A DNA stretch of 64,000 nt, taken from a virus. Lineage: Duplodnaviria; Caudoviricetes. The translations under genes were made by a program, and so were the position numbers. Position 1 is the stretch's first letter, and every line of letters starts with the position of its first letter. The notes under the pieces are model-generated. The model did not search any database. It was not told the origin of the DNA and saw nothing but the letters and a program-made list of their open reading frames with translations. Shown here piece after piece: positions 1,468-59,791 of this stretch. Where the stretch lies: positions 64,001 through 128,000 of IMG/VR virus record IMGVR_UViG_3300037455_000173. The stretch is one strand, 5' to 3'.

Positions 1468-1710
1468 AATACTTTCCTCCTAAGCCTAATGCTTTTGTCT
1501 GTGTGTTTTATTGTACCTATATTATAACACAGCTAGGTTAGGATTCCGAAGTTGGTTATAGCTTAATAATACCACAAACAAGGTGTGCATCTTAATACAC
1601 ACCTTTAGTTTGCTTATGGTTTGCTGTGGTTTTGCTTGAGGTAAACCCATACGATGTGTAATTACATTATTACACTACACCTCACGCATGCTGTAGCATG
1701 CTGTGTGGGC

Positions 1711-2235
1711 TTACAGGTTATGTTGCTCTTTAAAAGCATAGTAGTTCTGCCATGCTTTCCGAACTGCGTCTGCGGTAACCCCGTACTTATTGATGCTTAC
1801 CATCGCTTCGGAGTTTACCTTCTTCTGTACTCTGTTGTATCCGCCAAGCTTAGCAAGGAGTGCTATGCCCTTTCCTTCTGGTAGCTTATGAGCTCGAAGG
1901 TGTTCCTGCTCCGCCTTATTGTAGTATTCGGCAAAGAATGAAGCAGTTGCTTTAAGCTTGGCTAACACTTCTTCCGCGGTGTTCTCGGGCATCTTTTTAA
2001 TCTCTGCTAACCTGAAAGTGAACATTATTAAATCCGCGTCGATAGAGCTATGGGCATGCGGGAGCGGGCGAGAGCAGGAGTTTCGACGCTCCTGTCTCTC
2101 CTCTGCTTCCTCACGGTCTCTATCCAACCGCTCCTGTGCTTCCCTGTATGCCTTGGCATTGGCACGTGCCTGTATCTCAGCTAAACGCTCGGCATTGTGC
2201 ACGTCTTCGGGAGTCCACTGGAAACCGTTCGGCAT
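1711..2235 (-). CDS. hypothetical early protein
   Basis: 174-aa ORF, RBS. Confidence 0.75.
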   Translation of the reverse strand: MPNGFQWTPEDVHNAERLAEIQARANAKAYREAQERLDRDREEAEERQERRNSCSRPLPHAHSSIDADLIMFTFRLAEIKKMPENTAEEVLAKLKATASFFAEYYNKAEQEHLRAHKLPEGKGIALLAKLGGYNRVQKKVNSEAMVSINKYGVTADAVRKAWQNYYAFKEQHNL

Positions 2236-2236
2236 A

Positions 2237-2500
2237 TTAACCCTCCTTTAATTCGTACCAGTCCTGCTCAAAGCATCCGCCCTGGGTGTTGTGCTTGGCA
2301 TTGTTAAGAGCTGTTACCAGTCCCTTGCCAGACTTAGGCTCGGTGTTGACCTTACGACAGCCTGGGTAACCTGACCAGGACGCACCTGACTCGAGAGTGT
2401 ACCCGAACACTTCCTTAACCAGGTAATCCAAAGTGCCGGTGTACTCGTGTGCTCTGCCTCTGTGGTGGCATATGATTGTATACTCTTTCTTACCTGCCAT
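2237..2500 (-). CDS. hypothetical early protein
   Basis: ORF, RBS, promoter. Confidence 0.75.
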   Translation of the reverse strand: MAGKKEYTIICHHRGRAHEYTGTLDYLVKEVFGYTLESGASWSGYPGCRKVNTEPKSGKGLVTALNNAKHNTQGGCFEQDWYELKEG

Positions 2501-2597
2501 ATTACCTACCTCCTGTACCTTGTTCGCGGTTTGTTTTTACTGTACCTATATTATAACATAATCCGGGTACAGCAACGAAGTTAGTTCTCGACTACTA

Positions 2598-2840
2598 TCA
2601 CGCGTCATAGACCTGATGCATCGCATCGTTCAGGTCATTTAGGTACACTGGCTCACAGCCGCGCTTCGACAGCTGCTCAGAAAACCATTTATAGGCTTTC
2701 ATCTGCAGACGGTCATCACGCCAAGAATAATACCAGACACGGTGTTTGTATTCGTCAGGCTCGGTAGCACGGATATCCCGAAGTGTCATGGCAATCTCGT
2801 CCACTGATTTCCACTGACGTTTCTCAAGATTGATACCCAT
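2598..2840 (-). CDS. hypothetical early protein
   Basis: Start moved to MGINL, which is translationally coupled and has an RBS. Confidence 0.65.
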   Translation of the reverse strand: MGINLEKRQWKSVDEIAMTLRDIRATEPDEYKHRVWYYSWRDDRLQMKAYKWFSEQLSKRGCEPVYLNDLNDAMHQVYDA

Positions 2841-2842
2841 GA

Positions 2843-3175
2843 TTACACCCCCGTCTCTTCCTTGATGTAGCAGTATTCGACATTCCAATTAAGATGGCAG
2901 ACGTACTGCTCAAGGCGTATGCCTATGTCCTTACCGTCCAGACAGTCAGCAAAGATTGAATTACCTATGTTCGACGGAATGAAGAACTTGTTGTGGTTTG
3001 TGAACGCATAGCTACGCTCTTTTACGGTATACTCCTTACCGAAGGTATCCTGGGTGATTACAGCTACCATCGTACACGTCTGCGGTCCTCCGCCCTTAGT
3101 CGTGATGTTGTACCGCTCGTTGAATTCGGTGAGGTACTTAACTGCCTCGTTCCAGGTCATTCTAGTCTTATCCAT
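2843..3175 (-). CDS. hypothetical early protein
   Basis: Start moved to MDKTR (RBS). Confidence 0.7.
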   Translation of the reverse strand: MDKTRMTWNEAVKYLTEFNERYNITTKGGGPQTCTMVAVITQDTFGKEYTVKERSYAFTNHNKFFIPSNIGNSIFADCLDGKDIGIRLEQYVCHLNWNVEYCYIKEETGV

Positions 3176-3186
3176 ACCGTTCCTCC

Positions 3187-3363
3187 TTAACCTCCGCACA
3201 TGATGCGGTATCCGTTTCTGTTCTCTACGATTGTAAGGTCAAGAACCTCGTCGTCCCCAAAGTCTAAGGTCACATCGTGGTACTTGCCATCTTGTTCGTA
3301 ACCGGTCACCTTAAACTCTGCCGGGTAAATGTCCTTAAGGAAAGCAAACAAATCTTTCGGCAT
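3187..3363 (-). CDS. small acidic early protein
   Basis: Start moved to MPKDL (RBS after promoter). Confidence 0.65.
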   Translation of the reverse strand: MPKDLFAFLKDIYPAEFKVTGYEQDGKYHDVTLDFGDDEVLDLTIVENRNGYRIMCGG

Positions 3364-3454
3364 ACTCCTACCTCCTGTACTGTCTGGGACTTGTTTTATT
3401 GTACCTATATTATAACACGATGCACGCCTGGAACACGAAGTTGCCACATGAGAT

Positions 3455-3483
3455 AAAAAGAGCCCCAGCCTTTCGACTGGGGC
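3455..3483 (-). terminator. intrinsic terminator
   Basis: GCCCCAG hairpin followed by a U-tract on the minus strand. Confidence 0.65.
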
Positions 3484-3510
3484 AATATAAGGAGGTAGTA
3501 TCTATATAGA

Positions 3511-4065
3511 TTACTGGGCGTCTGCTACGTCGTAGGGGTCTGCTACTTCCTCTGCCTTAGGTGCTTCCTCTGCGGGAGCTTCGGGCTCTGGGTTGCCCCA
3601 TACACCTGATGTTACGCCTGCGTCTACCTGCTTGAGGAGGTCTGCCATATACTCGGCAAACAGTGCTACCCTGTCGGTTACCTCTACGTTGAAGGTCTTG
3701 GCATATCTTGCTGCGAAATCCGCGAATGTGCTTGCCATACCTCTTATCGGTGTGTTTGTCTCGACAAACTGTCTAATGTGACGAGCGTCTACCAGGTTGA
3801 TGAACTTATTGCTGGTTGCACCCTTGACTACTTCGCGAGGGTCTGCTCCTGCTGGAACTGTGATGTAGTCCCAGTACATAGCGTTGTACTTGTTACGAGT
3901 TGCGGTTATGAGGATAAGCTGGCGCTCCTCGTCTGCGGGCTTGATTACGTCGAGGAATCTAGGAAGTGTAGGAGCTGCAGGAGCCTCTGCTGTCTCTGGG
4001 ATGTCCTGGAGAACTACCTCTGTCTCGATAACCTCTGCCTGTGAATTAACATTCTTCTTAGCCAT
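3511..4065 (-). CDS. MAKKNV-family early protein, paralog 1
   Basis: Shares MAKKNV start, RGxAST and GxWxxPEPE motifs with 10253 and 15181. Confidence 0.8.
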   Translation of the reverse strand: MAKKNVNSQAEVIETEVVLQDIPETAEAPAAPTLPRFLDVIKPADEERQLILITATRNKYNAMYWDYITVPAGADPREVVKGATSNKFINLVDARHIRQFVETNTPIRGMASTFADFAARYAKTFNVEVTDRVALFAEYMADLLKQVDAGVTSGVWGNPEPEAPAEEAPKAEEVADPYDVADAQ

Positions 4066-4167
4066 AATATGTACCTCCTAAGTACTCTTAAAGTCTTGTC
4101 CTGTAAGGACGTGTTCGTTTTACTGTACCTATATTGTAACACACGCTGGTGTGTACAACGAAGTTTG

Positions 4168-4536
4168 TTATTTGGGACCTCTTCTGCTGAACCTGTCAAA
4201 GTCCCTACCTACCTGTCTGCTTGTCTCGTCACGCTGGTCGTCAAACATCTTGAGAATTACTTCCTGCACAATACGGCATATCTCAAGTGCTGTAGGCGTA
4301 TGCCCTAAGGCAGTTGCCAGGGCCTCTCGCCCAGGTATGTTACGTGTCACACCTGCTATCGTACAGCTCATCGAGGTGTCTGGCTTTTGCTCAAATAACA
4401 CCTGCTGCTTGTGCTGTTTGCTATACATATAATATGTAAGCGTACCGCGGTTGAAACCAGCTCTGTTAATTGTAAGCCCAAGCGTGTCCTCAAAGAACTG
4501 TTTAAGCTGTAAGTCCTGCTTGTTTATCTCACCCAC
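4168..4536 (-). CDS. hypothetical early protein
   Basis: GTG start with AGGAGGT RBS. Confidence 0.7.
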   Translation of the reverse strand: MGEINKQDLQLKQFFEDTLGLTINRAGFNRGTLTYYMYSKQHKQQVLFEQKPDTSMSCTIAGVTRNIPGREALATALGHTPTALEICRIVQEVILKMFDDQRDETSRQVGRDFDRFSRRGPK

Positions 4537-4803
4537 TGTCTACACCTCCTAGGACTTGTTTTACTGTACCATAAGTATAACACTTCGCGGTTTTAAAATA
4601 CGAAGTTCACGAACAGTAGCAGACTACACCGTTTACACGGTATTTATAGTAATGTAACTCCAATACAGTGCCGTAGCACGCTGGTGTTTGCTTGAGGTTT
4701 ATACACTACCTAGTGTAATTATACAATAAGCACAACCACGTGGTATACCACAGCATGCTGTGTCCGTGGTATTCACGGTGGATAGCGGGAGCTTCGAGTA
4801 AAA

Positions 4804-4852
4804 ATGTTAGATGTGTTAGATATGTTAGATGTGTTAGATATGTTAGATGTGT
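4804..4852. repeat. 9-bp tandem repeat (RTGTTAGAT) x5
   Basis: atgttagat gtgttagat atgttagat gtgttagat atgttagat. Confidence 0.9.
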
Positions 4853-4933
4853 GATATAACATAAATAGCATTTCTACTCGAAGCTCTACATAAATAAACA
4901 GGAGGGCTAACTTCGTGTTAGCCCTCCTTTGTA

Positions 4934-5368
4934 TTACTTGCCCATTACCTTTTTGTACACCTTGTCTACTTCGTTGTAGTCAAAGCTACCTCTTGTAAAC
5001 GTGTTAAACCTGTATGCTCTAAATTCGCCCTGCCCATGGGATTCGTCCCACATGTCTACTATTATATAGTTTCGTTTTCTCTGTCCTTCCCAACCTCCAC
5101 GTACTAAATAGCCTCCGTCCCAGTATATACAAGCGTCTGCCAGTGCCTCTCCCAGTTCCTGTTTAACATTAACCCAGCCTATAAGTTCGTAACCTGCGTT
5201 TCTAAACTCCTCCACCATCTGCTCGTCGTCTTTTCTCCACCTGTCGTCGTACTCTCCACCGTACTGTAATGCCATTTCTTCTAATGTCATTACGTTGTCC
5301 AAGTCAAAAAACCTGCCACTTATAACGCTCTTTGCTGTGTAACCCATCTCTGTAATCTTCTTTGCCAT
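4934..5368 (-). CDS. hypothetical early protein
   Basis: ORF, RBS, promoter, terminator. Confidence 0.75.
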   Translation of the reverse strand: MAKKITEMGYTAKSVISGRFFDLDNVMTLEEMALQYGGEYDDRWRKDDEQMVEEFRNAGYELIGWVNVKQELGEALADACIYWDGGYLVRGGWEGQRKRNYIIVDMWDESHGQGEFRAYRFNTFTRGSFDYNEVDKVYKKVMGK

Positions 5369-5649
5369 ACACGCTACCTCCTAAGTAACTTTACGCTGTT
5401 GTTCTAGTGTTTTATTGTACTTGTATTATAACATTTCCAGACGTAAAGCTCCGAAGTTTCACACCCTTGTTTGTATAGCGGAGCTTCGACGTTTTTCTAA
5501 AGATATGTTACAATCTTTACTGTAAACAGCACACGTAAAGATGGGTTTAGGTGCGCAAGTCGAAATTGATAAATTCGTTTAGCGCACCTAGCTATTATAT
5601 TATGTTACTGTAAACAGCACACGACGATAGGGCATAGCAGTTAAACCGA

Positions 5650-5988
5650 TTAAGTCCTACTTCTATGCTTAAGTCGAAACCTCGCAAGTAATCGTCTATA
5701 TCCACTAACGTCTGCGTCCTTAAACAGTTCAGGTTGTAAGAACGCTTCAGGTATGTCAACGTCGTCATGCTGTTGTTCGTCCTTCAGCACAAGCATGGGA
5801 ACAGAACCAATACGTCTTAACTCGTCAACCGTACCAACTACTTCAGGTAACCAATTAGCGTAGCACAGCAAATCTTGTGTGGATTGCCAGACGCGGTACA
5901 CCTGATTTAGCTTAGTAAGGTTTATCTTAAGGTCAGAGTTGCTGACGTATGTCCTACCCGTGCTATCAACTCGTAGTGAACACTTCAT
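5650..5988 (-). CDS. hypothetical protein
   Basis: ATGA overlap with the upstream gene. Confidence 0.65.
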   Translation of the reverse strand: MKCSLRVDSTGRTYVSNSDLKINLTKLNQVYRVWQSTQDLLCYANWLPEVVGTVDELRRIGSVPMLVLKDEQQHDDVDIPEAFLQPELFKDADVSGYRRLLARFRLKHRSRT

Positions 5989-6320: not shown

Positions 6321-6323
6321 CAA

Positions 6324-6650: not shown

Positions 6651-6740
6651 ACCAATACCTCCTAAGTAATGGGCTTGTGTTTTACTGTACCTATATTATA
6701 ACACATTACAGTGCGTGATACGAAGTTTCAAGATACACCC

Positions 6741-6878
6741 TTACCACCTAAGGGTGTATATCTGTCCGTCTGTGCCTTCTGCCTGCCAGGCTGTCGGGCC
6801 TATCGGCCATGCATTGACACATTCGATACCGTGCTCTTCCTTAAGGACTGCCAGAACATCCTGTCTAACGTCTTCCAT
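6741..6878 (-). CDS. small early protein (45 aa, not in ORF track)
   Basis: MEDVRQDVLAVLKEEHG...; own promoter and AGGAGGT RBS. Confidence 0.65.
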   Translation of the reverse strand: MEDVRQDVLAVLKEEHGIECVNAWPIGPTAWQAEGTDGQIYTLRW

Positions 6879-7349: not shown

Positions 7350-7364
7350 ACCTTACCTCCTATC

Positions 7365-7577: not shown

Positions 7578-7948
7578 ACGTACCTCCTATTTGGTCTGGG
7601 ACTTGTTTTATTGTACCTATATTATAACATATTCAAGACAGCATTACGAAGTTTTCTAACACCAACTGCACCAGTATTGTGGTTTACACGAGTACATAGA
7701 GTTACAAAAGCACACAGCACGCTAACGCATGCTGTGGTTTTTACGTTGTTGATGTATAAGTATACACCATATACAACCACGTGGTATACCACGTTTTGCG
7801 AGGTGAAGGATTTCGCAACTGCGGTGATAGTGGTGACTTTTAGAGCTTCGAGTTCCCATCGCGAAATGTGTTATATAACATATTTCTCACATAGAACTCG
7901 AATGTGTGAACACCAGGAAGTTGGGGCTCTTTCGAGCCCCTGCGTGTA

Positions 7949-9639: not shown

Positions 9640-9944
9640 ACGCTACCTCCTAAGTACATCGGGTTTGTTGTTTACGTTTACTGTATCTATATTATAACAT
9701 ACTACAGGTTCACTTCCGAAGTTTGTAAAACCATTGTAGTGGTTACACAGGTGTACAGTATACACAGCACACCACGCACGCTAACGCATATTAATGGTTT
9801 ACGTATGTAGGTGTATAACTATACACTAAAAATACCACACGGTTTGCGTGTGGTTTGCTACGTGTGGTTTTGTGTATTATTAATCAGAACTGCGGTGAGA
9901 ACTCGAAGTGTGATAGTTGAAAAGGTAAGGGCTCTTTCGAGCCC

Positions 9945-11290: not shown

Positions 11291-12022
11291 ACACTACACC
11301 TCCTTGTGTTTTCCGTTGTTTGTTTTACTGTACCTATATTATACAACACCTACAACTGAGATACGAAGTTTGGTAGCCACAGCATGCGAGGTTTTGCTAC
11401 GTGGTTTATATGAGGTAGTATTAGTATACTGGTATATGGTGTTGCGTTGGTTCTGCTGTGGTATGCGTGTTGCTGTGTGTTATTATTGTATATTGTATAG
11501 TGCGCATTATTAAATAATAGTAATTATAAATAACAGCTGAAAGCAAAGAACTCGAAGAGTTCGGTATATAAGGCCACGCCTTCGAGTTCTTGTTATTCTT
11601 GTGATTATAGATGAGTTTCGAGTTCGGTAGCAGAATGCTGTAGACTTGTATTGTACACCAGGCGCTCGCATGTCAGCCCTGGGTAGATGTGTCGAAGTGC
11701 AGACTCTATATAAAGCTGCCCGCAGGGCAAGTTCGAAGCTCGTGGAACAGGCGGCAGGTTCGGGGGTGTCGAAGTGAGCGAAGCGAACGGAGACGGTATT
11801 ATATGTTCAGCCCCGCAACGAAGTGCGAAGCAAGAGTGTAGGTGAGAGAAGAAAAGATAAGAACGAAGTGAATTTCTTTTCGATAGGCGAAAGCATGAAG
11901 CCGGCGAACATATAATATATTGTGAGGTAACAGTAGGTTTAGATTAAAGAATTTTACATGAATTTCTTCGGTGAATATTTAAAGTCTTATACAGAGTATA
12001 CGAAAACCGTCGAAATACCACA

Positions 12023-14731: not shown

Positions 14732-15180
14732 AACTCTACCTCCTAAGTAGTTACCCGGTTTACGTTTACTGTACCTATATTATAACATATACAGGTGTAG
14801 CATCCGAAGAAAGCTACCGCATGCTGACTATAGCGGCAGCTTCGACTTAACAAGTATAGTGTGATTATGAACTGCGTATCGCACAGCGGGACGTGGTTAT
14901 ACAGTATTAAAAACAGTACAGCACACCATGATGCTGGTGTTATGCTACAGCAAAACCATGGTTTACATACTTATTAATATAACTATACGTGGTTTTGAAC
15001 CACGTGGTATGCGTTAGCGTACTGTGTCGCATAAACCGCAGTTCTGGTGGGAGAGCTCACGAGCTTCGAGTTCCAATCACGAAATGTGTTATATAACATA
15101 TTTCTCAAGTAAAACTCGAATTAGTGAAACCAAAAAGCAAGAGCGAGGCTATTGCCCCGCTCCGCGTTTCGAGTTATGGT

Positions 15181-15708: not shown

Positions 15709-17079
15709 AAACGTACCTCCTAAGTACTTCCGCCCCGTGGGGCTTTGTTTTTGTTTGTTTGTTTTATTGTACCTATATTATAACATACACGTGGTGGTGA
15801 AACGAAGTTACAAAATAAGGTGGTGTTTATATTTTAAATGAACGCGCACGCGCGCGTAACACAAAAGAAGGTGGTTACCCGAAGATAAACACACCAGCTA
15901 CAGCGTTTGCTTGAGCTTCGACTTAACACTGGGTTGTTGATTTTAAATGCAACCGCACTGTGCGTTTGTTCCAGAAGTTGTGCGTTTCGGTGTGGTAGCT
16001 CGAGCTTCGAGTCCTAAAGGTCACCACGATTATGGTTTTGTAGAAGATATTCTAGAAGATAAGGGGTAGGGGTATTACAACTTCGTTTGCTTGTTAAGAT
16101 AAAATGTTACAATTATATTAACAAAAACAACTTCGTGAATACCGTTACGAGTGGAAGTTCTGGAAGGTCCTTGTGTCCGAATTTTCGGTAGGGCTTCGGT
16201 TAGGTGAAAGGTGGTGGAGTAGATTGGTTCAGCACTTTGGTAAGGTAGCTTGGCAGGACGTAGCAAGAAAACGAATATCTTTGCCTGATTCCTGTGCTAA
16301 AAGCGTTGTGCTACCAACCTGGGTCCCTGATACCTGTGCTATGGGTCCTGATATCTGGGTTAGAACCCTGAATCTGGAGCCTAGATACCTGGTACCGGTT
16401 GTAACTCTATCGAACTCCGATATCTGGTACCTACCGTACCGTGCTAAGGACACCGGCATACCGGTGTTTTGTTTTTGGTATACGGTATACACCAGCAATA
16501 CGGTCAATACCATTGGAATAGAACATTGGAATTGCCCGGATTGTTCGTTAGAATGTATAGAAATCACCGTTCGGGAGTGGTGGTTTATCGTTACCCGCAA
16601 GATGAGAAAATGTGGAATTGAATTCCTAAGGCGCAACGACGCGAAATTGAAAACCATAACAACGGTGGCGCAATCCATAGTGAACTCTTGGTTTGCTAGT
16701 CTAGTAATTTCTCACAAATAGCTGAGTAGACCACCGTTACCGTGGTGTGCTGTGAACACTGATTCCTATGATTTTAGCTAATTCTATATGACATTGGTCG
16801 TTCACGACCTCCGTCAGGTTGATACTACCTATTCTTGGTGGAAAGCGGGCGGTTTCCGTAGTGAACTCTTGAACACTAATTCTGAGTATTATAACCTTAG
16901 TTAAGGTGTGTCTACGATTTCTAGGGTATGCCCTGACTTCCAACCGTTTTTAGCTATTAGTCAGAGCTCTGCATTTTCCTCTTTACATATACAATCATGT
17001 CTGCATTTTTGGATATAAAAGAACCCACCATGACAACGGTGTCAACGGTGGGTTTCGATTATTCTTTGAATTTTATGGA

Positions 17080-17919: not shown

Positions 17920-18732
17920 TTATTCCACCATCTCTGGCTCTTCATCATTGTAGTCAGCTTCTTTCGTTACCTGGCGAGCTATCTGTCTTTCGGCTACCTC
18001 TTCCTTAGACTTAAAATATCTCTTACCGGCTTCCTTCTTCTTGTTCAACCGTTCTTGATACTTCTCGTCACCTAGCTTAGCTCGTTCTGCGTCTTCCTTC
18101 TGCTTATTATACCCGAAGAATCTAGAGTCCGAGTTTCTATGTAGACTAGCTACCTGTACCTCATCTTGGTCTTCATAATAATAACCCTTTCGTCCTGGCT
18201 CATCTGGAACGAATAGCTTGATGTACAGAGCATCTCGATGTAGTGGATTCTTGCTACCCTTTATAGTCTCATCAACTGCAGCAGTATCTGGAAATAGAAC
18301 TGATAGTGGCATTCTCCATTCATAGAATACTCCATAGTCATACTTGGTTTTCTTTGCGGTTGTCTTAGCTCTCTTAGCTCCGGCAAAGTGCTGGTCTTTC
18401 ACATCTATCGATTTTACCGCCTTGATTAAATCGGAGTGGTCAATCTTTCCGTCTGGATGATTTCTATTATAATCTTGTAGTACCTGTGCGAAGTTACTTT
18501 CAGCTTCCTTACCGTCTTTCAAACAGTCGAACCTGAACAGCGACGCTGGTGCTGCTTTCACATAATCCATCAGTTTTTGTAATTCCTCAGGCTTAGGGTA
18601 ATACCTAATCTTCTTGTCAACTCCAGGACCTAGATTAGCACAGTTCAATTTCAACTGCTCTGCTAAGTACCTAGGTATATTAATTGAACAGCATAGAATT
18701 ATCGGTTCTGATTTAAGCTGTACCTTTAGCAT
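17920..18732 (-). CDS. basic hypothetical protein
   Basis: 270-aa ORF, strong RBS. Confidence 0.8.
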   Translation of the reverse strand: MLKVQLKSEPIILCCSINIPRYLAEQLKLNCANLGPGVDKKIRYYPKPEELQKLMDYVKAAPASLFRFDCLKDGKEAESNFAQVLQDYNRNHPDGKIDHSDLIKAVKSIDVKDQHFAGAKRAKTTAKKTKYDYGVFYEWRMPLSVLFPDTAAVDETIKGSKNPLHRDALYIKLFVPDEPGRKGYYYEDQDEVQVASLHRNSDSRFFGYNKQKEDAERAKLGDEKYQERLNKKKEAGKRYFKSKEEVAERQIARQVTKEADYNDEEPEMVE

Positions 18733-18942
18733 GTCATTTCCTCCTCCTTGTGTGCTTAACTGCTACACATTATAATTATACAATATACATCACGTACAGC
18801 AGCAGTTACGCACGCTAACGTGTGCTTACAGAGTATACAACTCCTATATAACTAATTATACTATGAGAAATGAACACGGTATACCACCAAGCAGCTAACG
18901 CACAGCAGTATACCGTTTCTTACTATATTTACAACACCTATA

Positions 18943-19200
18943 TTAAGCACAACCAGCTGGCTTAATCGTATAGAGTGAAAGTACCTCTCTACCTTGCTGG
19001 TCAACGACGATGCATTTATACCAGGTGTCTGCCCAGAGCTCTGGTTGATTCTCCTTAACTACCTTATCGAACACTTCTTTCTGGAAGCACTCCTGTTCGT
19101 TCGGGTTAACCTCTACTTCTACTTCCACCTCAGTTAAAAACTCATCGTCTTCCTTGTGGTGTTGCTTAAAGTACCTAAGTGTATATGGTAACACTACCAT
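18943..19200 (-). CDS. hypothetical protein
   Basis: ORF, RBS; EVEVEVNP...DTW resembles the next gene. Confidence 0.65.
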   Translation of the reverse strand: MVVLPYTLRYFKQHHKEDDEFLTEVEVEVEVNPNEQECFQKEVFDKVVKENQPELWADTWYKCIVVDQQGREVLSLYTIKPAGCA

Positions 19201-23473: not shown

Positions 23474-23548
23474 TGGTGACGGGTAAGAGAGTCGAACTCT
23501 TCTTTAGAGAATGAAAATCTCTTGTCCTAACCGATAGACGAACCCGCC
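23474..23548 (-). tRNA. tRNA-Glu(TTC)
   Basis: Cloverleaf; anticodon arm AGAGA-TTTTCAT-TCTCT; GTTCGA T-loop; encoded CCA. Confidence 0.9.
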
Positions 23549-23607
23549 CTATACAACTTCCCTGCTATTAAAAGAGCTGTGTGCTAAGTTGCCATGTCAC
23601 GCTACGC

Positions 23608-23682
23608 TGGTTGGGGAAGCGGGATTCGAACCCACGAATGCAGGAGTCAAAGTCCTGTGCCTTACCACTTGGCTATACCCCA
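23608..23682 (-). tRNA. tRNA-Gln(TTG)
   Basis: TGGGGTATAGCCAAGTGGTAAGGC...CTTTGAC...GGTTCGAATCC...CCA. Confidence 0.93.
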
Positions 23683-27151: not shown

Positions 27152-27480
27152 CCTCCTGTTGTTATATATTTTTTGTATCTATATTATAACATTATAAAAA
27201 GTACGATTACGAAGTTATGTAAACACACAGCACGCTAACGATTGCTGTGTATGTGTATATAATGTATAATTACACACGCAATACGATTGTCGTACAGCAA
27301 AAATAAAAATGCTGTAGCATGAACTACAGCATTTTATGTATGTGTAAACAGTAAACCTGTAAATTGTCTATGTAATAGCAAGCTGTTTCTCAAATTCCAC
27401 TACATTCCCAGGAGAAGGAACCCGATTCCTCATCGGCACGTCTGCGAACGGGCACTTGCCATTACATATTATGAATCCAA

Positions 27481-30254: not shown

Positions 30255-30339
30255 TGGTGCGGATGACAGGACTTGAACCTGCACACCTCTCGGCATCAGA
30301 ACCTAAATCTGACGTGTCTGCCAATTTCACCACATCCGC
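30255..30339 (-). tRNA. tRNA-Leu(TAG)
   Basis: 85-nt class II cloverleaf; TCAGA-TTTAGGT-TCTGA; GTTCAAGTC; CCA. Confidence 0.93.
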
Positions 30340-31380: not shown

Positions 31381-31654
31381 GACAAATCTCTCCTTTGTTT
31401 TATGTTTGTGTGTCTACAACGCAATATTATACACGTTTATCAACCTCGATACCGAAGTTACTAAAATAACACGCATGCTACAGCATACCACGTGATTATA
31501 TTTTACATATAAAGTATAGTGGTTTATAATGTCTACGTGGTATACCTCAGCAAAACATAAGAATAAAGTGAGATATACACAATATATAAATAGTATAAAT
31601 ACATACAACCATAGAAAAGCCCTTGACCTATTTGCCAAGGGCTTTTCTTGTCAG

Positions 31655-35746: not shown

Positions 35747-36715
35747 TTAGACTACAACATCGAAACCGTGGTCATATAGCCATTGAGTATCTTTCATTTG
35801 AGCTGGTGTTGCGGGTATACCATATTGAGTATTTAGATTATTAGTTGTATAAACAACAGAAGGATCGTCACGGTTTGTAACATAGTTCTTCCATACACCT
35901 TTGGGCATACCAATATCAGGAGTAGCAGCACCAGTTATAAGTTTCAAGTCCGCATCGACAACATTCTGAATTGATGAGTTATAGGTATAATACCTAAGCC
36001 GTATTCCATCGTCACCTACAATGGTACCATCGATGTAGCAACCATTTAAATGGAATGTTCTTAGTTCATTAGCATAGCTAGTAGACACAGACCAGCCCTT
36101 GTATGTGCATCTAATCCAACAAAAATTAGCATTGCATTTCGAATAATTAGTATTACCGAACATTCCTGACACGATACTGAGTGTATCTTTATCGTCGTCA
36201 GTCTGTGTTGATGTTAAACTTGCTATAGGTACATTGAAGAAGCAAGATGTGAACGTCAGATATCCGGTATTGGAATTTCCACCCTTAAATAGATTACTGG
36301 TTCTTCTACCGACAAAGCGACAATCAGAAAAAGCTACATTACGGCTTGAAAAATAACTGAATTGAAATAACCGGGATTCCGTTACTAGATTGATAAAATC
36401 AATGTTCTTAACACTTAATGAACCACCATGACTAGAACCTGGATTATACATAAATATAGCTACAGGATTTGTAACATGAGTTCTTAGATTGCGGATTACA
36501 TGATTTTTAGTTACACCGTTTTCCTGATATGCGCCGCTTAACACTCTAGTTCCTGAAGGTATATCGATAGTTGATACCACTCCTAACGGTATCTCAAAAT
36601 TACAATCAATATCGGAAACTAATCTGATGTTGAAAACATCACCACCTGCATCTACTCTGGTTAAAGCGTCTACTAATTCACTCCAGGTACTAACTTCTAG
36701 ATTATATGTAGCCAT
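35747..36715 (-). CDS. putative adhesin/RBP (family A, copy 3)
   Basis: VSTWSEL, DIDCN.EIP.G, IRNLRT, PATPAQMKD.QWL...GFD. Confidence 0.65.
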   Translation of the reverse strand: MATYNLEVSTWSELVDALTRVDAGGDVFNIRLVSDIDCNFEIPLGVVSTIDIPSGTRVLSGAYQENGVTKNHVIRNLRTHVTNPVAIFMYNPGSSHGGSLSVKNIDFINLVTESRLFQFSYFSSRNVAFSDCRFVGRRTSNLFKGGNSNTGYLTFTSCFFNVPIASLTSTQTDDDKDTLSIVSGMFGNTNYSKCNANFCWIRCTYKGWSVSTSYANELRTFHLNGCYIDGTIVGDDGIRLRYYTYNSSIQNVVDADLKLITGAATPDIGMPKGVWKNYVTNRDDPSVVYTTNNLNTQYGIPATPAQMKDTQWLYDHGFDVVV

Positions 36716-39597: not shown

Positions 39598-41601
39598 TCA
39601 TTCTATGTATTCTATTCCCTCAGGAATACCTACTTCTGTTATGTTCAGATTACCGTCCATTAGAACATTAGCTACATGAGTTATCGGAGTACCATCAACC
39701 TCAGCTAACAGCATTGGCTTAGTAATCGAACCTTTATAGTAGATTGGCTCATTGTTCGACGCAATCAGATAATCATCTGTAGTAGTGGCATCGAAATATT
39801 CTACTTCCTTGAAACCAGCACCTACTAAAAATGCATGAACATTAGACAGTGTAGCTGGTCCCTGAGCTGTTATTACAATTCTAGAACGAGCACCTGATAA
39901 TTGAATAGTATCGGTTATCGTTACCATCTTATCGGTTAGGGAAGTAACCGGAATTGTATGAGCACTTGCAGTTTCAGCACTACCGGTAGTCTGGTCAATA
40001 ATTATGCGTAAATTACCTAAATCTGCACCTTGAACTCTAAATGTTAGCGTAAACTCTACATCTACAGCTGAAGACATACCTTGTACTGCTATCCTACCAA
40101 TAGACTTTACAAGGTTACTAACCTGATTAATCGGATTAGTATCGAACACTATTAAGGTAGGACCTAGCATCAATATATTACATGAGAACAGATTTTCATC
40201 TTCTACCGACGTAGCAGTTACCTTTAGACACTCAGCAGACTCATCACTACCTATGGTTAACAAACCAGTGTTCGATAGAGTTGTCTGTTCGCTAAGGGCA
40301 CCGTCTAGACTCCAGGTTACATCTGTAGAATACGTACCGCTACCGGTAACTGTTGCTATATTCTGAACTGTACCGTCCTGTAATAACTCAGAAGTTACAA
40401 CTACAGACGTAACCATATTATTAAGGGCACCTCTAAAAAGAACAGCAGTAGTGCTAACCTCAGCATCTTCTGCTGATGTAGCTGTGACATATAACCAGTC
40501 TGAGTGGTCATTTTGAGCTACGGTCAGCAAACCATCATCAGAAATAGATGTATCTGAGCCAGGAGTTTGATTTGAGACAGACCAGTCTACGTCTTGACTT
40601 ACACCGTCATCACCACGTACGATACCTCGGAACTGTAATGTACTCTCGTCTATAGATTTACCACTTACTGCTATTCCCTGTGGTATAGGCTTAAGGAATT
40701 CTTTTACTTCTTCATTTGGCATTATAGCGCGAACAGATATTCTCCATTCTAGAATCATAGATTGATTATGACTTAGATACATTACATCTTCTTCTGTAGG
40801 TACTCTAAATCCAGCAAGCATAGTATGTAGTCCGTCTGGTTCAAAGTTGCTACGCTCATATAGACCAAACTCTGAAATAGCAACTCGTTCTAGTTGAGGA
40901 CCTACAGGAGTTACCGTGTCTGTCATTGTTATAGGGTCAAATGTGTGTTTCTGAGGTGTTAATAGTTTATTAACCCACTTTGGTGATGCATATGAATAGA
41001 ATATTACTGCTGATGAATAACCGTCTATACCGAAGTCTCTATCAGACGCATTGTCCGACACAACATCAGCTCTCAGAATAGGAAGTCTTGATAGTGGCTC
41101 CCAGCCTTGTTCAAGCCATTCTTGTTCTGTACCTGGTTCAATAGCCGAACATAATTCACCTTCAAACCTAGGTTCATCAGGAGTATCAGGTGTTCCCCAG
41201 CCATATTCTGGATTCCAGAAATAGGGATTTCTACCTTCATCGTCTATTATCTTAGTTCCACATACGTCAGTCAAAGCTAATGAAGTAGATTCAAACCAAG
41301 GGCGAGTTCTATCTTTTGATTCGGGCCTAAGCTCTGAGAATTGTGGTTCGAACTCGCATGCGCCTGTATTTCCTTGTCTGGTTATTCCCATAGTACCCAA
41401 ACTCATGTAATTAGGTCTACCGACGCCTCGTATATATGAACTGTCAGCTCCGGTAAGATAATTACATATACCCTGAGTTAACAGACGAGTAGCTGTATTC
41501 TTAAATAACTTTTGCTGAACTACACACTTACCTTCGACGATTGTTACCTTAACATTAGACTCGATTTTTGCATGAACATGGGGATTCATCTTATCTATCA
41601 T
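39598..41601 (-). CDS. tail fibre/baseplate-attached protein with Ig-like domains (paralog 2)
   Basis: Shares KNTATRL, GRPNYM, AISEFGLYE, MLAGFRVP with 41644; Ig-like V.WS...GLLT.VTATS repeats. Confidence 0.7.
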   Translation of the reverse strand: MIDKMNPHVHAKIESNVKVTIVEGKCVVQQKLFKNTATRLLTQGICNYLTGADSSYIRGVGRPNYMSLGTMGITRQGNTGACEFEPQFSELRPESKDRTRPWFESTSLALTDVCGTKIIDDEGRNPYFWNPEYGWGTPDTPDEPRFEGELCSAIEPGTEQEWLEQGWEPLSRLPILRADVVSDNASDRDFGIDGYSSAVIFYSYASPKWVNKLLTPQKHTFDPITMTDTVTPVGPQLERVAISEFGLYERSNFEPDGLHTMLAGFRVPTEEDVMYLSHNQSMILEWRISVRAIMPNEEVKEFLKPIPQGIAVSGKSIDESTLQFRGIVRGDDGVSQDVDWSVSNQTPGSDTSISDDGLLTVAQNDHSDWLYVTATSAEDAEVSTTAVLFRGALNNMVTSVVVTSELLQDGTVQNIATVTGSGTYSTDVTWSLDGALSEQTTLSNTGLLTIGSDESAECLKVTATSVEDENLFSCNILMLGPTLIVFDTNPINQVSNLVKSIGRIAVQGMSSAVDVEFTLTFRVQGADLGNLRIIIDQTTGSAETASAHTIPVTSLTDKMVTITDTIQLSGARSRIVITAQGPATLSNVHAFLVGAGFKEVEYFDATTTDDYLIASNNEPIYYKGSITKPMLLAEVDGTPITHVANVLMDGNLNITEVGIPEGIEYIE

Positions 41602-55400: not shown

Positions 55401-55734
55401 TACTGCTAATCTGACCTAAAACCTGATAAATCTGCTTTAAGCTGGTATCGACAGACGATACAGTTGACCTTATACTGCCTACATCTTTGCTGACAGCAGT
55501 TAGAGTGGTTGTTACCGTGTCAAGATTTTTCTTGGCTTGGGTGAACAACTTATACTCTTTGGTCATCGTCTTGTTCATATTGGTAACAGTCTTGAACATT
55601 TTCATTTCAAGCTTATACAGATTAGCAGTCGATGCGGAATCTGCTTTAAGTTGCTCTAGAATGTCACCAGCTGTTGACTCATCAGTGCTATTAGAGTTAG
55701 TAGTATTGGTATTATTGTCTTTAGGGTCTGGCAT
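52474..55734 (-). CDS. tail tape measure protein
   Basis: 1086 aa, Ala/Gln-rich helical, G-rich GGPIGGIVG segment, upstream of baseplate genes. Confidence 0.75.
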   Translation of the reverse strand: MPDPKDNNTNTTNSNSTDESTAGDILEQLKADSASTANLYKLEMKMFKTVTNMNKTMTKEYKLFTQAKKNLDTVTTTLTAVSKDVGSIRSTVSSVDTSLKQIYQVLGQISSNGSALGGGSSNSGSGVNGAAGNTAVRDLEQRIRTAEARLEQLRDDAANGLASQDDVDDQQQEVDELTSRLEDVRNSLRDVLGIYDDYETRSDLYERQIDELIQAYTDNQISLNELNQGLADARSSFDRYNDTLQEVERAWNSDGSPIGSLRAMREEASNRYDAERNELTEMFNRQVPGADGSIMTEDDYLEQMGNLIESRNAELAFYDNLIKSVKKVEGLVNTIAEGKTFDAKTGQNHTASAVVGGIGSIGGDLLGTAAGQAIGEAIGGPIGGIVGEAIGKFIGSKIDALATIVGDHLDYLANHSKKTRDEILKAGFDKIRSDVKDMATYSIEMYETASKNIYAAWDKNLSQITATQGYTKEALNSLQDAVAQRLQEEGYGTTIDASQYLDQLANTLNAKLGGQLAEAFAAQNLILQKAVPEVDLSQSAAEFAAIYAQANKESGTGEEEMIAAMNEIAGAAKALESVTEGNNQFLKETSTLMTRATEVVNIAGGNADQISKLTTQMMASEAAITSVAPQLSGFTNELVNILMNSNDATAVALRAIMNDINPNIGVSATSFMQSFMEDTQDTLSTAFAAIQRFIDQNENEASRQEFLKAMESIFGVQGSKLAQIDFGNVSDLIAQVSTSVNMAALTDAENLVRSGETTTLEEQLVANTANQLLATNALSSTIDNKLMRKLEANELNLEKLVYSAQATQSVELAENTLGFFTKISDLIMSILDPLGLFDMISTSINAQTSAMIDAERYVITSTASNIGSTVADSTAGLRNTFANTVGGATAAIQAAETKSTDMMALAIANSGVSESFEEMMIDYSLATRNAQAVAAENQAESNAISYAAMEQQARNSSEYRQQQQAAQEQDAKYEEEKAAAREEQRRIEDESLEREKGNYENIAYISSYIADLDMSEYLEPILEEHRTHTEQIKDLQKQTGEIVKLISTVLEYSMVTNPEFESSLSYDERSRIIDNGYVSNYLSGHF

Positions 55735-55931
55735 AGATAATCCCTCCTTTCAGTTTATTATATATGTTATTATCAGAGATTATACCGTAATAACCACGTA
55801 TGCTGCTACAGCATGCGTAAGGTTTATAAACTATGTATAATGTTATACCACACGTATTAGACACACGAAAACTAAACGCACAACAGTAGCAAAACCGTTG
55901 TGCGTTTATAAGGAGTATATATGAAAGAGAA

Positions 55932-56465
55932 TTACACCAATCTATTATATTTATCTTCCCAGAAAATCGTTTCACCTTTCATTAAAGTTCTTTGAACATC
56001 GATAAGTCTTTGATTTTCTGAACCACGATATTTTAATAGTAGGTTCTTCTTTTCAATCTGAAACGGACCGTCCACGAGTACATCTATACAATCTAGAATA
56101 TCCTTTACATATGGAGTAGACACACCAGAGCATAATAGTTGCTCTATTGTATACCCAGTAAAGCACCAGATATCTTTGCCAGGTAGTAGTCTAACCACGG
56201 TGGATAATAGATAATAGACTTCTTTCTGATTTTTAGGTTCAAATGGTTCACCACCTAATAGTGACAAACCCCGAACATGCGGATTAGACAACATATGGAT
56301 TATTCTGAGTAGAACTCCTTCATCATAAGGTTCACCATAGTCGAAATCCCAAGCTACCTCATTGAAACAACCGGGACATTTTCTAGTACAACCAGAAACA
56401 TACACGCTAACTCTTACACCGGGTCCGTTTGCTATATCCAAATTCTTGATATTAGCAATGTTCAT
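55932..56465 (-). CDS. nrdG: anaerobic ribonucleotide reductase activating enzyme
   Basis: DIANGPGVRVS, CTRKCPGC, GGEP, DVLVDGPF, RGSENQR. Confidence 0.95.
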   Translation of the reverse strand: MNIANIKNLDIANGPGVRVSVYVSGCTRKCPGCFNEVAWDFDYGEPYDEGVLLRIIHMLSNPHVRGLSLLGGEPFEPKNQKEVYYLLSTVVRLLPGKDIWCFTGYTIEQLLCSGVSTPYVKDILDCIDVLVDGPFQIEKKNLLLKYRGSENQRLIDVQRTLMKGETIFWEDKYNRLV

Positions 56466-58636
56466 AGATGTTCAACCCTATCCTTTATCTCTTGAGTACG
56501 TCCCTGGTTCCAGAATTGAGTACCAATATATCCACAGGTACGGCGAGCAACAGACATCTTTGTCTGGTCTCTATTACCACAATTCGGACACTCCCATAGA
56601 AGCTTTCCATCTTCCTCGATTATTTCAATCTCACCGTCATATCCACATTCGTGGCAGTAATCACTCTTGGTATTAAGCTCAGCATACTGAATTTCATTAT
56701 AGATGAACTTAACTACTTCCAGAACTGCTGGGATATTATCGGTCATATCAGGTACTTCTATATATGAGATAGCGCCACCAGGTGATAACTTCTGGAACTC
56801 AGATTCAAAAGCAAGTTTGGTAAATGCATCAATCTTTTCAGTTACATGGACATGATATGAATTAGTAATATAATTCTTATCTGTTATGCCTTCGATTACA
56901 CCGAAACGCTTCTGAAGTGCCTTAGCAAACTTATAGGTTGTACTTTCTAATGGAGTTCCATATACAGCATAGCCTATGTTCTCAGCTTTCTTCCATTCGA
57001 TACATTTATCATTAAGTCTTTGCATAATAGCCAAAGCAAAGTCCTTAGCTTCTGGGTCTGTATGTGAATGACCGGTCATCGCTTTGACACATTCATATAA
57101 ACCAGCATATCCAAGTGATATTGTCGAATAGCCACCATAAAGTAGCTTATCTATCTTCTCACCTTTCTCCAATCTAGCTATCGCACCATGCTGCCAAAGA
57201 ATAGGAGCTACATCAGAAGTTGTACCTAGAAGTCTTTCATGTCGGATACGTAACGCTCTATGACATAGTTCAAGCTTGTCATCAAGAATACGCCAGAACT
57301 TATCAAAGTCACCTCTAGCTGTTAAACCAACAGCTGGGAGATTTAAGGTTACTACTCCTTGATTAAAACGACCGAAGTATTTTGCTTTTCCATTCTCGTC
57401 TACATAGGGAGATAAAAAAGAACGGCATCCCATAGGTGGAAAACATTGACCATCACCGTTCGCATCTATCTTCGTCGCTTTCATTATCTTTTCTGAAACA
57501 TAGTCTGGTACCATTCTCTTAGCAGTACATTTTGCTGCCAATTCGGTTAGATACCAATATTCGGTAGTTTCATCGCAGTTATTCGTATCAAGTACATAGA
57601 TAAGTTTAGGAAATGCAGGTGTTATCCATACACCCTTTTCATTCTTAACACCTTGAATACGCTGCTTCAAAATCTCCTCGATAACTAATGCTAAGTCCTT
57701 CTTCTCTTGTTCAGTTCTAGCTTCATTCAGGTATAAAGAAAGGCTCAAGAAAGGAGCCTGACCGTTGGTAGTCATTAGTGTGATTACCTGGTATTGAATT
57801 GTCTGAACACCTTTTGATATTTCCTTAGCGAGTCTTTTATTGAGAATAGTTTCTGCTTGACGCTCTGATAACTGTAAATCAGCAGCAGCACATTCCTCTA
57901 AGATTTGCTTCTTAATGCTTTGTCTACTAACATCAACGAATGGAGCTAGATGAGCTATAGATATTGTCTGACCACCATACTGATTAGAAGCAACCTGTGC
58001 AATAATCTGTGTTGCTATATTACAAGCGGTTGAGAATGAATGTGGTCTATCGATACCTGTACCGGAAATTACAGTACCATTCTCGAGCATATCTTGTAGA
58101 TTGATTAAGCAGCAATTATACATAGGCTGAGCGAAGTAATCTGCATCATGGAAATGAATATCCCCTATTCTATTCGCTTCCTGTATATCTTCAGGCAATA
58201 GGTGTGTAAATGTTATGTTCTTAGACACTTCACCTGCCATATAATCACGCTGAACAGAATTAATCAGAGTATTCTTATTGGAATTTTCTTCCTTTAATAC
58301 AGCGTTCTTGTTCTGAATTAATGACATTATGTTGTCTGTCATGTTGTCTGATTTACGTGCTAAAGCACGCTTATAGCGGTATGTAATATACTCTTCAGAC
58401 AGCTTTGAGAGGTTCTGATTTATTAGCTCTTGAACTACAAAATCCTGAACGTCTTCGACGGAAACAATGCTAGTCTGCTGCTCACACCTAAAAATTACAG
58501 CATCAGCAATCACAGTAATCTGTTCATCTGTTAGCTTATTTTCTTCGCTCATCTTAGCATTAGCTTTAGATATAGCGCTGACAATCTTACTCCCATCGAA
58601 CCCGACTTCTTTTCCGTCTCTTTTGATAATTTGCAT
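56462..58636 (-). CDS. nrdD: anaerobic ribonucleoside-triphosphate reductase (class III) with ATP cone
   Basis: IIKRDG ATP cone, NCCL, MGCRSFL, CHECG..CPNCG, RRTCGYIG glycyl-radical motif; start set at MQIIK. Confidence 0.95.
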   Translation of the reverse strand: MQIIKRDGKEVGFDGSKIVSAISKANAKMSEENKLTDEQITVIADAVIFRCEQQTSIVSVEDVQDFVVQELINQNLSKLSEEYITYRYKRALARKSDNMTDNIMSLIQNKNAVLKEENSNKNTLINSVQRDYMAGEVSKNITFTHLLPEDIQEANRIGDIHFHDADYFAQPMYNCCLINLQDMLENGTVISGTGIDRPHSFSTACNIATQIIAQVASNQYGGQTISIAHLAPFVDVSRQSIKKQILEECAAADLQLSERQAETILNKRLAKEISKGVQTIQYQVITLMTTNGQAPFLSLSLYLNEARTEQEKKDLALVIEEILKQRIQGVKNEKGVWITPAFPKLIYVLDTNNCDETTEYWYLTELAAKCTAKRMVPDYVSEKIMKATKIDANGDGQCFPPMGCRSFLSPYVDENGKAKYFGRFNQGVVTLNLPAVGLTARGDFDKFWRILDDKLELCHRALRIRHERLLGTTSDVAPILWQHGAIARLEKGEKIDKLLYGGYSTISLGYAGLYECVKAMTGHSHTDPEAKDFALAIMQRLNDKCIEWKKAENIGYAVYGTPLESTTYKFAKALQKRFGVIEGITDKNYITNSYHVHVTEKIDAFTKLAFESEFQKLSPGGAISYIEVPDMTDNIPAVLEVVKFIYNEIQYAELNTKSDYCHECGYDGEIEIIEEDGKLLWECPNCGNRDQTKMSVARRTCGYIGTQFWNQGRTQEIKDRVEHL

Positions 58637-58699
58637 AGTAGTCACTCCTTCCTGATTAAGAGGCACACGGTACCTCTTTACTTATTGTATGCTACGCAC

Positions 58700-59644
58700 T
58701 CACGATTCTGAGGTAAAGAAATGGATTAAATCTTTAACATCCTCTTCTGTCTCCCAGTCCCAATGCTTGGTGGCTGCGTAGATATCAGGAAGAGCTCTAG
58801 ACTCTTCATCAGTTAAATCAAAACCACGACCATATGTCCAATATGCGTTAGACCACGGTATGTATGATTGGATAAGAATATTATCAGATTTTGGAAGTTC
58901 AATCTCACGACTAGATATTGTTCTGTACAAAGCAAAGTAATAGATTTTTTCTGCACCTAGCTCTGATAAACGACGAATTACTGCCTGAGCAGTTCTACCA
59001 CTTGAAATTAAATCATCTATAACGATAACATTTCTACCGGTTACTTCTGTACACTTCGTTTCTGTAACCTGAATTAATCCATCGTCCTGTGTATTTGTTG
59101 CTGTATCATAATGCTGAACATCAAATACAATATCTGATTTAATGCCCATTCTATCAGCTAACATAGTACCTGCACATGCTATAGAAGCATATAGACAGTT
59201 ACCGTCGTCTGGTGATTCTACCATAAGCTTAAAATTATTTTCTAAGAGCGTAGCAGCTACACCGCTAATATATGGTTCTGTAGCCTTTGCTCTAGGAAAT
59301 GACCAAGAATCATTATCTATTAAATCTAGAACAGCGTCTAAGATTTTATTACAATTAGCAGGTCGTTGACATATACCAAGTACCCTGTCAAAAGTCTTGA
59401 TATGAATAGCCACGTTACCTACAGCACGTACTTCAGCTTCATCTGGTGAACCTATATTCGTACATAAAATCTGAGTATCGGGTGCCGCCTGTACAAAGTA
59501 CAAAGCCACCGGTTTATCTTTATTCTCCCTAATTGAATCTGGTACTACAATACAGCAATTCTTAGCTTCATTCTGCCAATAGTATTTAGAATCTGCTATG
59601 GCTTGTGTACCTAAATCTGATGCATAAAAGTCTAACATCAACAT
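58700..59644 (-). CDS. type I phosphoribosyltransferase, HPRT-like C-terminal half
   Basis: PRPP-binding VIVIDDLISSGRT; YGRGFD...RALPDIY resembles the HPRT C-terminus; own promoter. Confidence 0.75.
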   Translation of the reverse strand: MLMLDFYASDLGTQAIADSKYYWQNEAKNCCIVVPDSIRENKDKPVALYFVQAAPDTQILCTNIGSPDEAEVRAVGNVAIHIKTFDRVLGICQRPANCNKILDAVLDLIDNDSWSFPRAKATEPYISGVAATLLENNFKLMVESPDDGNCLYASIACAGTMLADRMGIKSDIVFDVQHYDTATNTQDDGLIQVTETKCTEVTGRNVIVIDDLISSGRTAQAVIRRLSELGAEKIYYFALYRTISSREIELPKSDNILIQSYIPWSNAYWTYGRGFDLTDEESRALPDIYAATKHWDWETEEDVKDLIHFFTSES

Positions 59645-59791
59645 ACCTCCTTAATTAATATATCACTATTATAACACGACTAGCTTTTTGAAACGAAGTT
59701 TCACAGCAAACGGTATTGCTGTATTGCTGCGGTGTTTTGTGTATAGTTACACAACCACGAACCGTGCACATAAGCAATACCGTTACTAGAA

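Follow-up and report, generated by a model that had tools for sequence, protein, structure and literature searches.

Why would short noncoding patches of a phage genome be almost cleared of a single dinucleotide step? The question is raised by the virus record IMGVR_UViG_3300037455_000173 (Duplodnaviria; Caudoviricetes), from which we analyzed genome bases 64001-128000, a stretch of 64,000 nt referred to here as the window. The record is 166,592 bp long, was rated complete by CheckV and has a G+C content of 40% over the whole genome; the genes of the window lie nearly all on the minus strand, and a megablast search of the window against a phage collection returned no close relatives. A first-pass annotation, made from the letters of the window, had pointed to intergenic islands of about 150 bp that are nearly devoid of GA and its complement TC, and had suggested that they are either windows free of a deazaguanine DNA modification or repeated sites for a genome-organizing factor. 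On balance, our results speak for islands that act as regulatory modules and are kept free of the motif targeted by the DpdA of the phage itself.

A two-letter depletion confined to intergenic islands

For each island, the number of GA plus TC steps (GA/TC) was compared with an expectation derived from the local composition. All 11 islands listed by the first-pass annotation proved strongly GA/TC-poor, with 0-7 steps found where 11-22 were expected (Table 1). The strongest of them indeed lacks GA/TC altogether (P 5e-9) and has no GGC/GCC either; the eight islands described as similar contain 1-4 steps for 11-19 expected, and the two described as weaker contain 6-7 for 15-22. AG/CT, the mirror step, shows only a slight deficit there, at about 0.5-1.0 of expectation.

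Over the 166.6-kb genome, islands were counted as intervals with three or fewer GA/TC steps against 15 expected, with 20 second-order Markov simulations as the null and AG/CT, AC/GT and CA/TG as control steps. The genome has 18 GA/TC islands, compared with 0-1 in the simulations, and its longest GA/TC-free run reaches 166 nt, compared with 59-81 nt in simulated sequences. The identical test found three islands for AG/CT and none for AC/GT or CA/TG. Inside the islands, the observed/expected ratio is 0.29 for GA/TC and 0.84-0.90 for AG/CT, AA/TT and CC/GG, while GT, GC, TA and TG are raised, as simple compensation predicts. Purine-pyrimidine alternation and general AT-richness were rejected as causes, since AG/CT, AA/TT and CC/GG are down by only 10-16%.

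Genome-wide, GA/TC occurs at its normal frequency (observed/expected 1.02). The first-pass annotation had named other intergenic DNA as a comparison to be made, and 70 non-island intergenic stretches gave a ratio of 0.96, many of them being near 1; the depletion is therefore a discrete feature and not a general property of noncoding DNA. GA/TC is lost from the islands on both strands and in every GA context, which points to a rule of two letters acting at the DNA level and not to a longer site. When islands selected on GA/TC alone were pooled from this genome and four relatives (see below), GGC/GCC was the most depleted of the trinucleotides that contain no GA, with 59 found for 135.6 expected (0.44 of the first-order expectation). 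Relative to the rest of the genome, GGC/GCC in the islands stands at 0.58, the lowest value, the next class being at 0.79.

Two further tracts were set apart. A coding "island" at genome position 39966-40300 has an ordinary amino-acid composition and falls outside the feature. The other lies outside the window (genome 155791-156092, minus strand), where TA is missing for 302 nt in the repetitive C-terminal part of an SSB-like gene; it is low-complexity coding sequence, unrelated to the islands.

Table 1. Islands poor in GA/TC and the features found with them, in window positions
Feature	Position	Strand	GA/TC found	GA/TC expected	Remarks
GA/TC-poor island	1555-1710		4	18.7	includes hairpin 1580-1605 (minus strand)
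GA/TC-poor island	4625-4760		2	16.5	words CAGCATGCTG, TACCACGTGGT
GA/TC-poor island	7657-7800		3	17.4	16-bp palindrome ACGTGGTATACCACGT; GCGTTAGCGTGC hairpin
Strongest island	9721-9883		0	19.2	163 nt without GA, TC, GGC or GCC
GA/TC-poor island	11371-11538		3	17.3	
GA/TC-poor island	14880-15030		4	18.5	composite word ACGCTAACGCATACCACGTGGT
Extra GA/TC-poor island, absent from the first-pass list	15730-15866		3	16.1	AACTTCG box adjoining at 15809
Weaker island	18748-18945		7	22.1	upstream of open reading frame (ORF) 17920-18732
GA/TC-poor island	27217-27365		4	16.5	GTTAGCGTGC word and terminator-like hairpin
Weak island	31460-31612		6	15.1	
nrdG/tape-measure island	55781-55920		3	16.1	position matched by an island in each of the four relatives
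Island directly downstream of folE	59702-59788		1	10.7	GA/TC also low in the syntenic copies of relatives
P1 promoter example, directly downstream of island	9681-9723	-			AACTTCG box and TGTTATAATATAG(G/A)TACA
Terminator-like hairpin CACAGCATGC-GTTA-GCGTGCTGTG, then T-run	7713-7736	-			includes the island-specific word CGTTAGCG
Similar hairpins	9834-9854, 1580-1605	-			
Putative promoter-like element inside island	7759-7787	-			ATACCA, 17 nt, TATACT
Putative promoter-like elements, same spacing	4718-4746 (TATAAT), 14982-15010 (TATAGT)	-			also in relatives
folE, queE, queD, queC, queF, queA operon (preQ1 pathway and QueA)	59792-63990	-			Pfam, PHROG, NCBIfam

Islands lie upstream of promoters

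On the minus strand, the islands extend from just past the stop codon of one gene to an AACTTCG box. This box opens a recurrent predicted promoter, P1, in which AACTTCG is followed after about 20 nt by TGTTATAATATAG(G/A)TACA(A/G)TAAAACA. The minus strand of the window holds 22 copies of the -10/leader pattern (e.g., at 9699, 7629, 1529 and 27191) and 29 AACTTCG boxes. Over the genome there are 26 close copies of the TGTTATAAT -10/leader motif and 45 sites combining AACTTCG with a -10-like hexamer, and these sites all precede ORFs with strong ribosome-binding sites. A TG-extended -10 hexamer, an upstream element at fixed spacing and repetition before genes would place P1 among promoters of the sigma-70/sigma-A type. 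Conservation of the first 15-20 transcribed bases suggests a leader function. An exact search of IMG/VR with the 18-mer TGTTATAATATAGGTACA returned 34 loci, several of them on relatives of this phage.

Most islands had been placed just upstream of a promoter -35 box, and eight of them do adjoin a minus-strand AACTTCG box (at 1553, 4607, 7653, 9723, 11370, 27216, 31459 and 59700). The two islands assigned to the tape-measure operon and ORF 17920 were also confirmed in their places, the former in the gap that separates the tape-measure gene from nrdG. The promoters that follow the islands in front of the tape-measure gene, the portal gene and ORF 17920 look different from P1. Where coding DNA lies directly upstream of a promoter, GA/TC is normal there (11-22 per 120 nt), whereas promoters with noncoding DNA upstream mostly have 0-7 GA/TC, with few exceptions. 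TTGACA, for its part, is not avoided genome-wide.

The genome encodes one sigma-70-family gene, outside the window at about 134170-134319 (minus strand; Pfam Sigma70_r2, 31.8 bits, 215-codon frame). Its product is a candidate reader of late-type promoters or of some island words.

Sequence composition of the islands

The first-pass annotation had described degenerate words shared by the islands. Their cores are real, but the full 12-14-mers that it quoted have only 1-3 copies in the window. All nine genome copies of CGCTAACG and nine of the ten copies of ACCACGTG lie inside islands, GGTTTTGCT and GCATGCGT are island-enriched as well, and the word set is nearly absent from the rest of the genome. 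Composite modules made of several words, such as AGCACGCTAACGCATACCACGTGGTTGTAT, recur within and among the five genomes.

Inverted repeats are abundant. Folding z-scores of -2 to -4.6 were obtained for nine of ten folded islands on both strands, the sense strand as a rule giving slightly stronger values, and several island hairpins are followed by T-runs and resemble a terminator of the upstream gene. Every ATACCACGTGG site, within palindromic words, shows ATACCA, a 17-nt spacer and a TATAAT-like hexamer, and may thus represent a second promoter whose -35 element does without the GA of the usual TTGACA. A loose promoter scan (A[TA]ACC[AG]-N16-18-TAnnnT) found the islands no richer than the DNA outside them; the fixed spacing is a property of the specific ATACCACGTGG sites.

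None of the islands matched a family in Rfam 15 at the gathering score. The three matches in the window, all outside islands, are transfer RNA (tRNA) genes at 23474-23682 and 30255-30339 (minus strand) for Glu-UUC, Gln-UUG and Leu-UAG. None of the three has a GUN anticodon, which marks the tRNAs that acquire queuosine.

Conservation in related genomes

Four complete relatives of 147-163 kb were taken from the IMG/VR matches to the promoter motif. Their capsid proteins are 91-96% identical to that of this phage, while their early and intergenic DNA could not be aligned to the window, promoters and terminators excepted; the comparison of islands was accordingly restricted to those beside conserved genes. 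All four encode a DpdA with about 90% amino-acid identity and the full que operon including queA. Their genomes contain 14, 10, 8 and 16 GA/TC islands, compared with 0-4 for the control steps, and the islands are marked by the same word set.

When regions were anchored on the words, and not on low GA/TC, GA/TC fell in each of the five genomes to roughly 0.2-0.8 of the genome mean over the 40 nt flanking a word on each side. Positions near the anchor words but outside repeated 14-mers were about equally depleted (0.49-0.69 of the genome mean); repeats were masked at 14-mers only, as 9-12-mers gave chance matches over most positions. Three islands are kept in four or five genomes: those ahead of the tape-measure and portal genes and the one at genome position 150.3 kb. 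With 61-74% identity, these syntenic copies retain 3-6 GA/TC steps, where random substitution starting from the window copy would give 10-19. Since GA/TC is retained below the drift expectation, and alignments by synteny show the same trend, we conclude that the rule is held by selection, more than by inheritance.

The deazaguanine pathway and DpdA

The deazaguanine pathway assumed by the first-pass annotation is present as an operon immediately beyond the last island (Table 1). FolE, QueD, QueE and QueC (59792-62253) all have Pfam and PHROG matches, and QueF and QueA score above the NCBIfam equivalog cut-offs. QueA (62755-63990, minus strand) reached 368.9 bits against a cut-off of 324 and is kept in all four relatives; a 2019 survey found QueA, QueG and QueH in no virus (PMC6884629).

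A DpdA homologue is encoded outside the window, in the replication module (genome 156820-157827, minus strand; PHROG 887, E 2.5e-49). It shows 26% identity to the genetically validated DpdA of CAjan in BLASTP (E 5e-24) and, in tblastn, 38% identity over 98% of the query to Gp7 of Dp-1, which makes the latter its closest characterized DpdA. Since the Pfam TGT model had no match anywhere in the genome, and searches of NCBIfam and PDB sequences gave none either, its membership of the family is drawn only from homology to phage DpdA proteins. Searches of the genome for methyltransferases of the D12 (Dam-type), N6/N4 and C5 kinds and for ThyA-like enzymes found none.

The motifs of two such enzymes have been measured. 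The DpdA of CAjan targets GA and GGC, as the first-pass annotation had correctly quoted (PMC7544227). The iggy enzyme targets GA only and modifies about 97% of GA sites (PMC10484667).

Islands in other phages with and without DpdA

The same test was applied to other phages, with the controls given as AG/CT, AC/GT and CA/TG. Among DpdA-encoding phages, iggy (61 kb, measured GA motif) has nine GA/TC islands (controls 0, 2, 2), the cultured Bacillus phage Flasso (108 kb; host B. cereus MCR1; DpdA of 39% identity) has 11 (controls 0, 0, 0), CAjan (measured GA and GGC motifs) has four (controls 0, 1, 1) and Dp-1 has none (controls 1, 1, 0). In K, A511, SPO1, T5 and EF24C, in which no DpdA was found, 1, 3, 1, 2 and 3 islands were counted, no more than islands of the control steps (0-5).

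The iggy islands are GGC-rich, which fits an enzyme restricted to GA. Annotated intergenic DNA of iggy has an observed/expected GA/TC ratio of 0.60, with AG/CT near 1, and the right end of the genome (59949-60628, 680 nt) contains 10 GA/TC where 62 would be expected. Both noncoding ends of the iggy sequence MN029011 (59949-60628 and 1-309) are nearly GA/TC-free yet GGC-rich. Flasso (MZ357961) encodes the preQ1 pathway without queA, and eight of its 11 islands are mostly noncoding and lie between small genes. The signal in CAjan is weak: besides the four islands, three intergenic stretches, all short, have 0.3-0.5 of the expected GA/TC.

A small Flasso ORF (102229-102471) has about nine GA/TC in 243 nt and lies inside a 496-nt GA/TC-poor stretch (102122-102617). 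Coding sequence may thus follow the rule as well.

What keeps the islands free of GA/TC

With moderate confidence, we favor the view that the islands serve regulation as modules from which the motif targeted by DpdA is excluded. They would be boundary modules that separate transcription units; in the order of transcription, each would run from the end of the preceding gene, marked by terminator-like hairpins, through the clade-conserved palindromic words (GCACGCTAACGC, TACCACGTGGTA, GGTTTTGCT and TGTATAAnTATACA, including the probable extra promoter ATACCA-N17-TATAAT) to the P1 promoter. Selection has purged them of GA/TC and, less strongly, of GGC/GCC; we propose that the phage DpdA exchanges guanine at these motifs for a 7-deazaguanine supplied by the preQ1 pathway. 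Island guanines would stay ordinary in modified (virion, late) and not-yet-modified (newly replicated) DNA alike, and RNA polymerase, sigma factors and regulators could then read the islands identically all through infection. The data show the depletion, its specificity for one dinucleotide, its position at promoters, its persistence against drift, the presence of DpdA and the pathway, and the association of such islands with DpdA across phages; modification of the DNA of this phage, GA (with GGC) as the motif and readability by proteins as the benefit are inferred.

Of the two suggestions made by the first-pass annotation, modification-free windows are thus partly supported, through the co-depletion of GGC/GCC, the four DpdA-encoding relatives and the contrast of iggy and Flasso with the five DpdA-less phages. 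A genome-organizing factor gained no support, as the islands track the boundaries of transcription units and carry terminator- and promoter-like elements.

Several observations weigh against islands that are shielded from DpdA. GATC is nearly eliminated from the genome (4 found vs. 557 expected) and GGCC stands at 0.38 of expectation, losses for which there would be no need if full modification made the guanines of GA and GGC protective, as it does in CAjan. The closest characterized DpdA belongs to Dp-1, which contains only about 3,400 dPreQ1 per million nucleotides (PMC6884629) and has no islands, so that homology of the DpdA does not predict a GA motif. Conserved P1 boxes include TC (AACTTCG) and the P1 spacers have a normal GA/TC density; the motif is therefore not avoided in all protein-read DNA, and any protected element sits farther upstream than the core promoter. 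Some noncoding stretches upstream of promoters are undepleted (boxes at 2582, 5458 and, just beyond the window end, 64272). The islands are largely built from a reused word set and so are not independent samples. The relatives' intervals in the drift test were picked by low GA/TC, which biases that test, and the syntenic islands are leaky in relatives, though unbiased synteny alignments still show the same trend. In iggy, some in-gene islands are low-complexity coding tails rich in Q, P and A, and were discounted.

The scarcity of GATC may be a host-range trait of the Bacillota type, since K, A511, EF24C and Flasso, with 0-1 sites each, share it. The sole GATC of the window lies at 35863, and the four relatives have 1, 9, 5 and, in the fourth, 41 sites. 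Among six-base palindromes, those with GA or GGC show weaker avoidance than the rest in the five related genomes pooled (median observed/expected 0.94 vs. 0.75, p 0.0095); we did not count this difference as support for protection, because GATC and GGCC go strongly the opposite way.

The islands might instead be reused regulatory cassettes of terminators, operator palindromes and promoters, kept alike by gene conversion among about 25 copies, whose recognition words merely happen to contain no GA/TC and in which modification plays no role. Words and composite modules such as AGCACGCTAACGCATACCACGTGGTTGTAT do recur within and between the five genomes, about 40% of the anchor regions of this genome lie in repeated 14-mers, the phage-encoded sigma-70-family factor could read some of the words, and T4-type phages have comparable mobile cassettes of promoter and stem-loop (PMC2839356). 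We nevertheless judge this explanation unlikely. Non-repeated positions are depleted as well, the 163-nt GA/TC-free stretch spans the spacers between words, and GGC/GCC is lost together with GA/TC. Moreover, unrelated DpdA phages follow the same dinucleotide rule with quite different island sequences (GC-rich in iggy, AT-rich in Flasso), whereas DpdA-less T5, SPO1 and K have many early promoter cassettes without it.

Two further explanations were considered. One is that the islands escape a different GA/TC-directed activity, such as an unrecognized nuclease or nickase of phage or host, or a modification of A, T or C. The dinucleotide rule is silent on base and enzyme, many large ORFs of the genome have no family match, and the avoidance of GATC indicates an attack on GA-containing sites within this host range. 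Against these points stand the lack of any methyltransferase or ThyA-type family among those searched for in the genome and the link to DpdA phages, which together with the loss of GGC fits the published DpdA specificities; we also know of no enzyme with the specificity of a GA-dinucleotide nuclease, and regard such an activity as improbable. The other acts at the level of RNA: transcribed but untranslated hairpin arrays or small RNAs would avoid Shine-Dalgarno-like GGAG/GAGG, or a ribonuclease acting at GA/UC, and pairing in the stems would mirror the avoidance onto the complementary step. Hairpin-rich islands with z-scores of -2 to -4.6, folding that is usually slightly stronger on the sense strand, U-runs after several hairpins and the presence of GA in every 4-mer of the Shine-Dalgarno core are in line with it. 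Still, we hold a constraint on RNA to be very improbable, as GA and TC are both missing from the same strand, loops and unpaired spacers included, GA is lost in all contexts, purine-rich or not, no Rfam family matches, and neither the depletion of GGC nor the link to DpdA phages would be explained.

Deazaguanine hypermodification is known to protect phage DNA from restriction enzymes and Cas9. How gene regulation copes with so bulky a mark in the major groove, on about one guanine in four, is a matter unaddressed in the literature that we found. If the islands are motif-free by design, a conflict between regulation and modification exists and is solved in cis; the specificity of a DpdA could be deduced cheaply from sequence, where measured motifs in that literature are those of CAjan and iggy, and islands would mark the control regions of uncultured phages. 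We put forward, tentatively, that islands free of GA/TC (and, depending on the enzyme, of GGC) could be a general, sequence-readable negative imprint of dinucleotide-specific DpdA modification; where a quarter of the guanines are replaced, a phage would carve out unmodifiable regulatory hubs. If so, both the target motif of the enzyme and the control regions of the phage would be predictable from a genome sequence. The base excluded in this clade may be a preQ1 derivative elaborated further by the phage QueA. The idea is directly testable, because Flasso is in culture and shows the same pattern.

Comparison with known systems

The phage resembles CAjan and iggy in combining a DpdA homologue with FolE, QueD, QueE and QueC, and also QueF. 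The two motifs depleted from its islands are the two target motifs of CAjan (PMC7544227), and iggy, with its GA-only enzyme, has islands that are GA-free but GGC-rich (PMC10484667). The system described here differs in that it is known from a negative imprint in the sequence, its DpdA is distant (26% identity to CAjan, 38% to Dp-1), and the pathway continues to preQ1 and includes QueA, which the 2019 survey had found in no virus (PMC6884629); Flasso has no QueA. The CAjan and iggy papers make no mention of promoters or intergenic DNA (PMC7544227, PMC10484667), and a full-text literature search found no description of such islands.

The layout recalls that of T4-type phages, where modules of a stem-loop and an early promoter are repeated through a region of small early genes and vary among close relatives (PMC2839356). 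No dinucleotide purge has been described there. The islands are also longer than those cassettes and have several extra conserved palindromes.

The pattern is akin to restriction-site avoidance in that a short word is removed by selection because an enzyme acts on that word. Classical avoidance is genome-wide and concerns 4-6-bp palindromes and the enzymes of the host, whereas in this phage a two-letter step is lost only in regulatory patches of about 150 bp and is normal elsewhere, and the avoided enzyme is presumably the phage's own. With its depletion local, GA/TC falls outside genome-wide restriction-site avoidance, and the loss of GATC is a separate matter. An analogy, and no more, is offered by the CpG islands of vertebrates, which are promoter-proximal patches free of the DNA mark of the genome. 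There, the target dinucleotide persists and the methyltransferase is kept away from it; in this phage, the dinucleotide would itself have been taken out.

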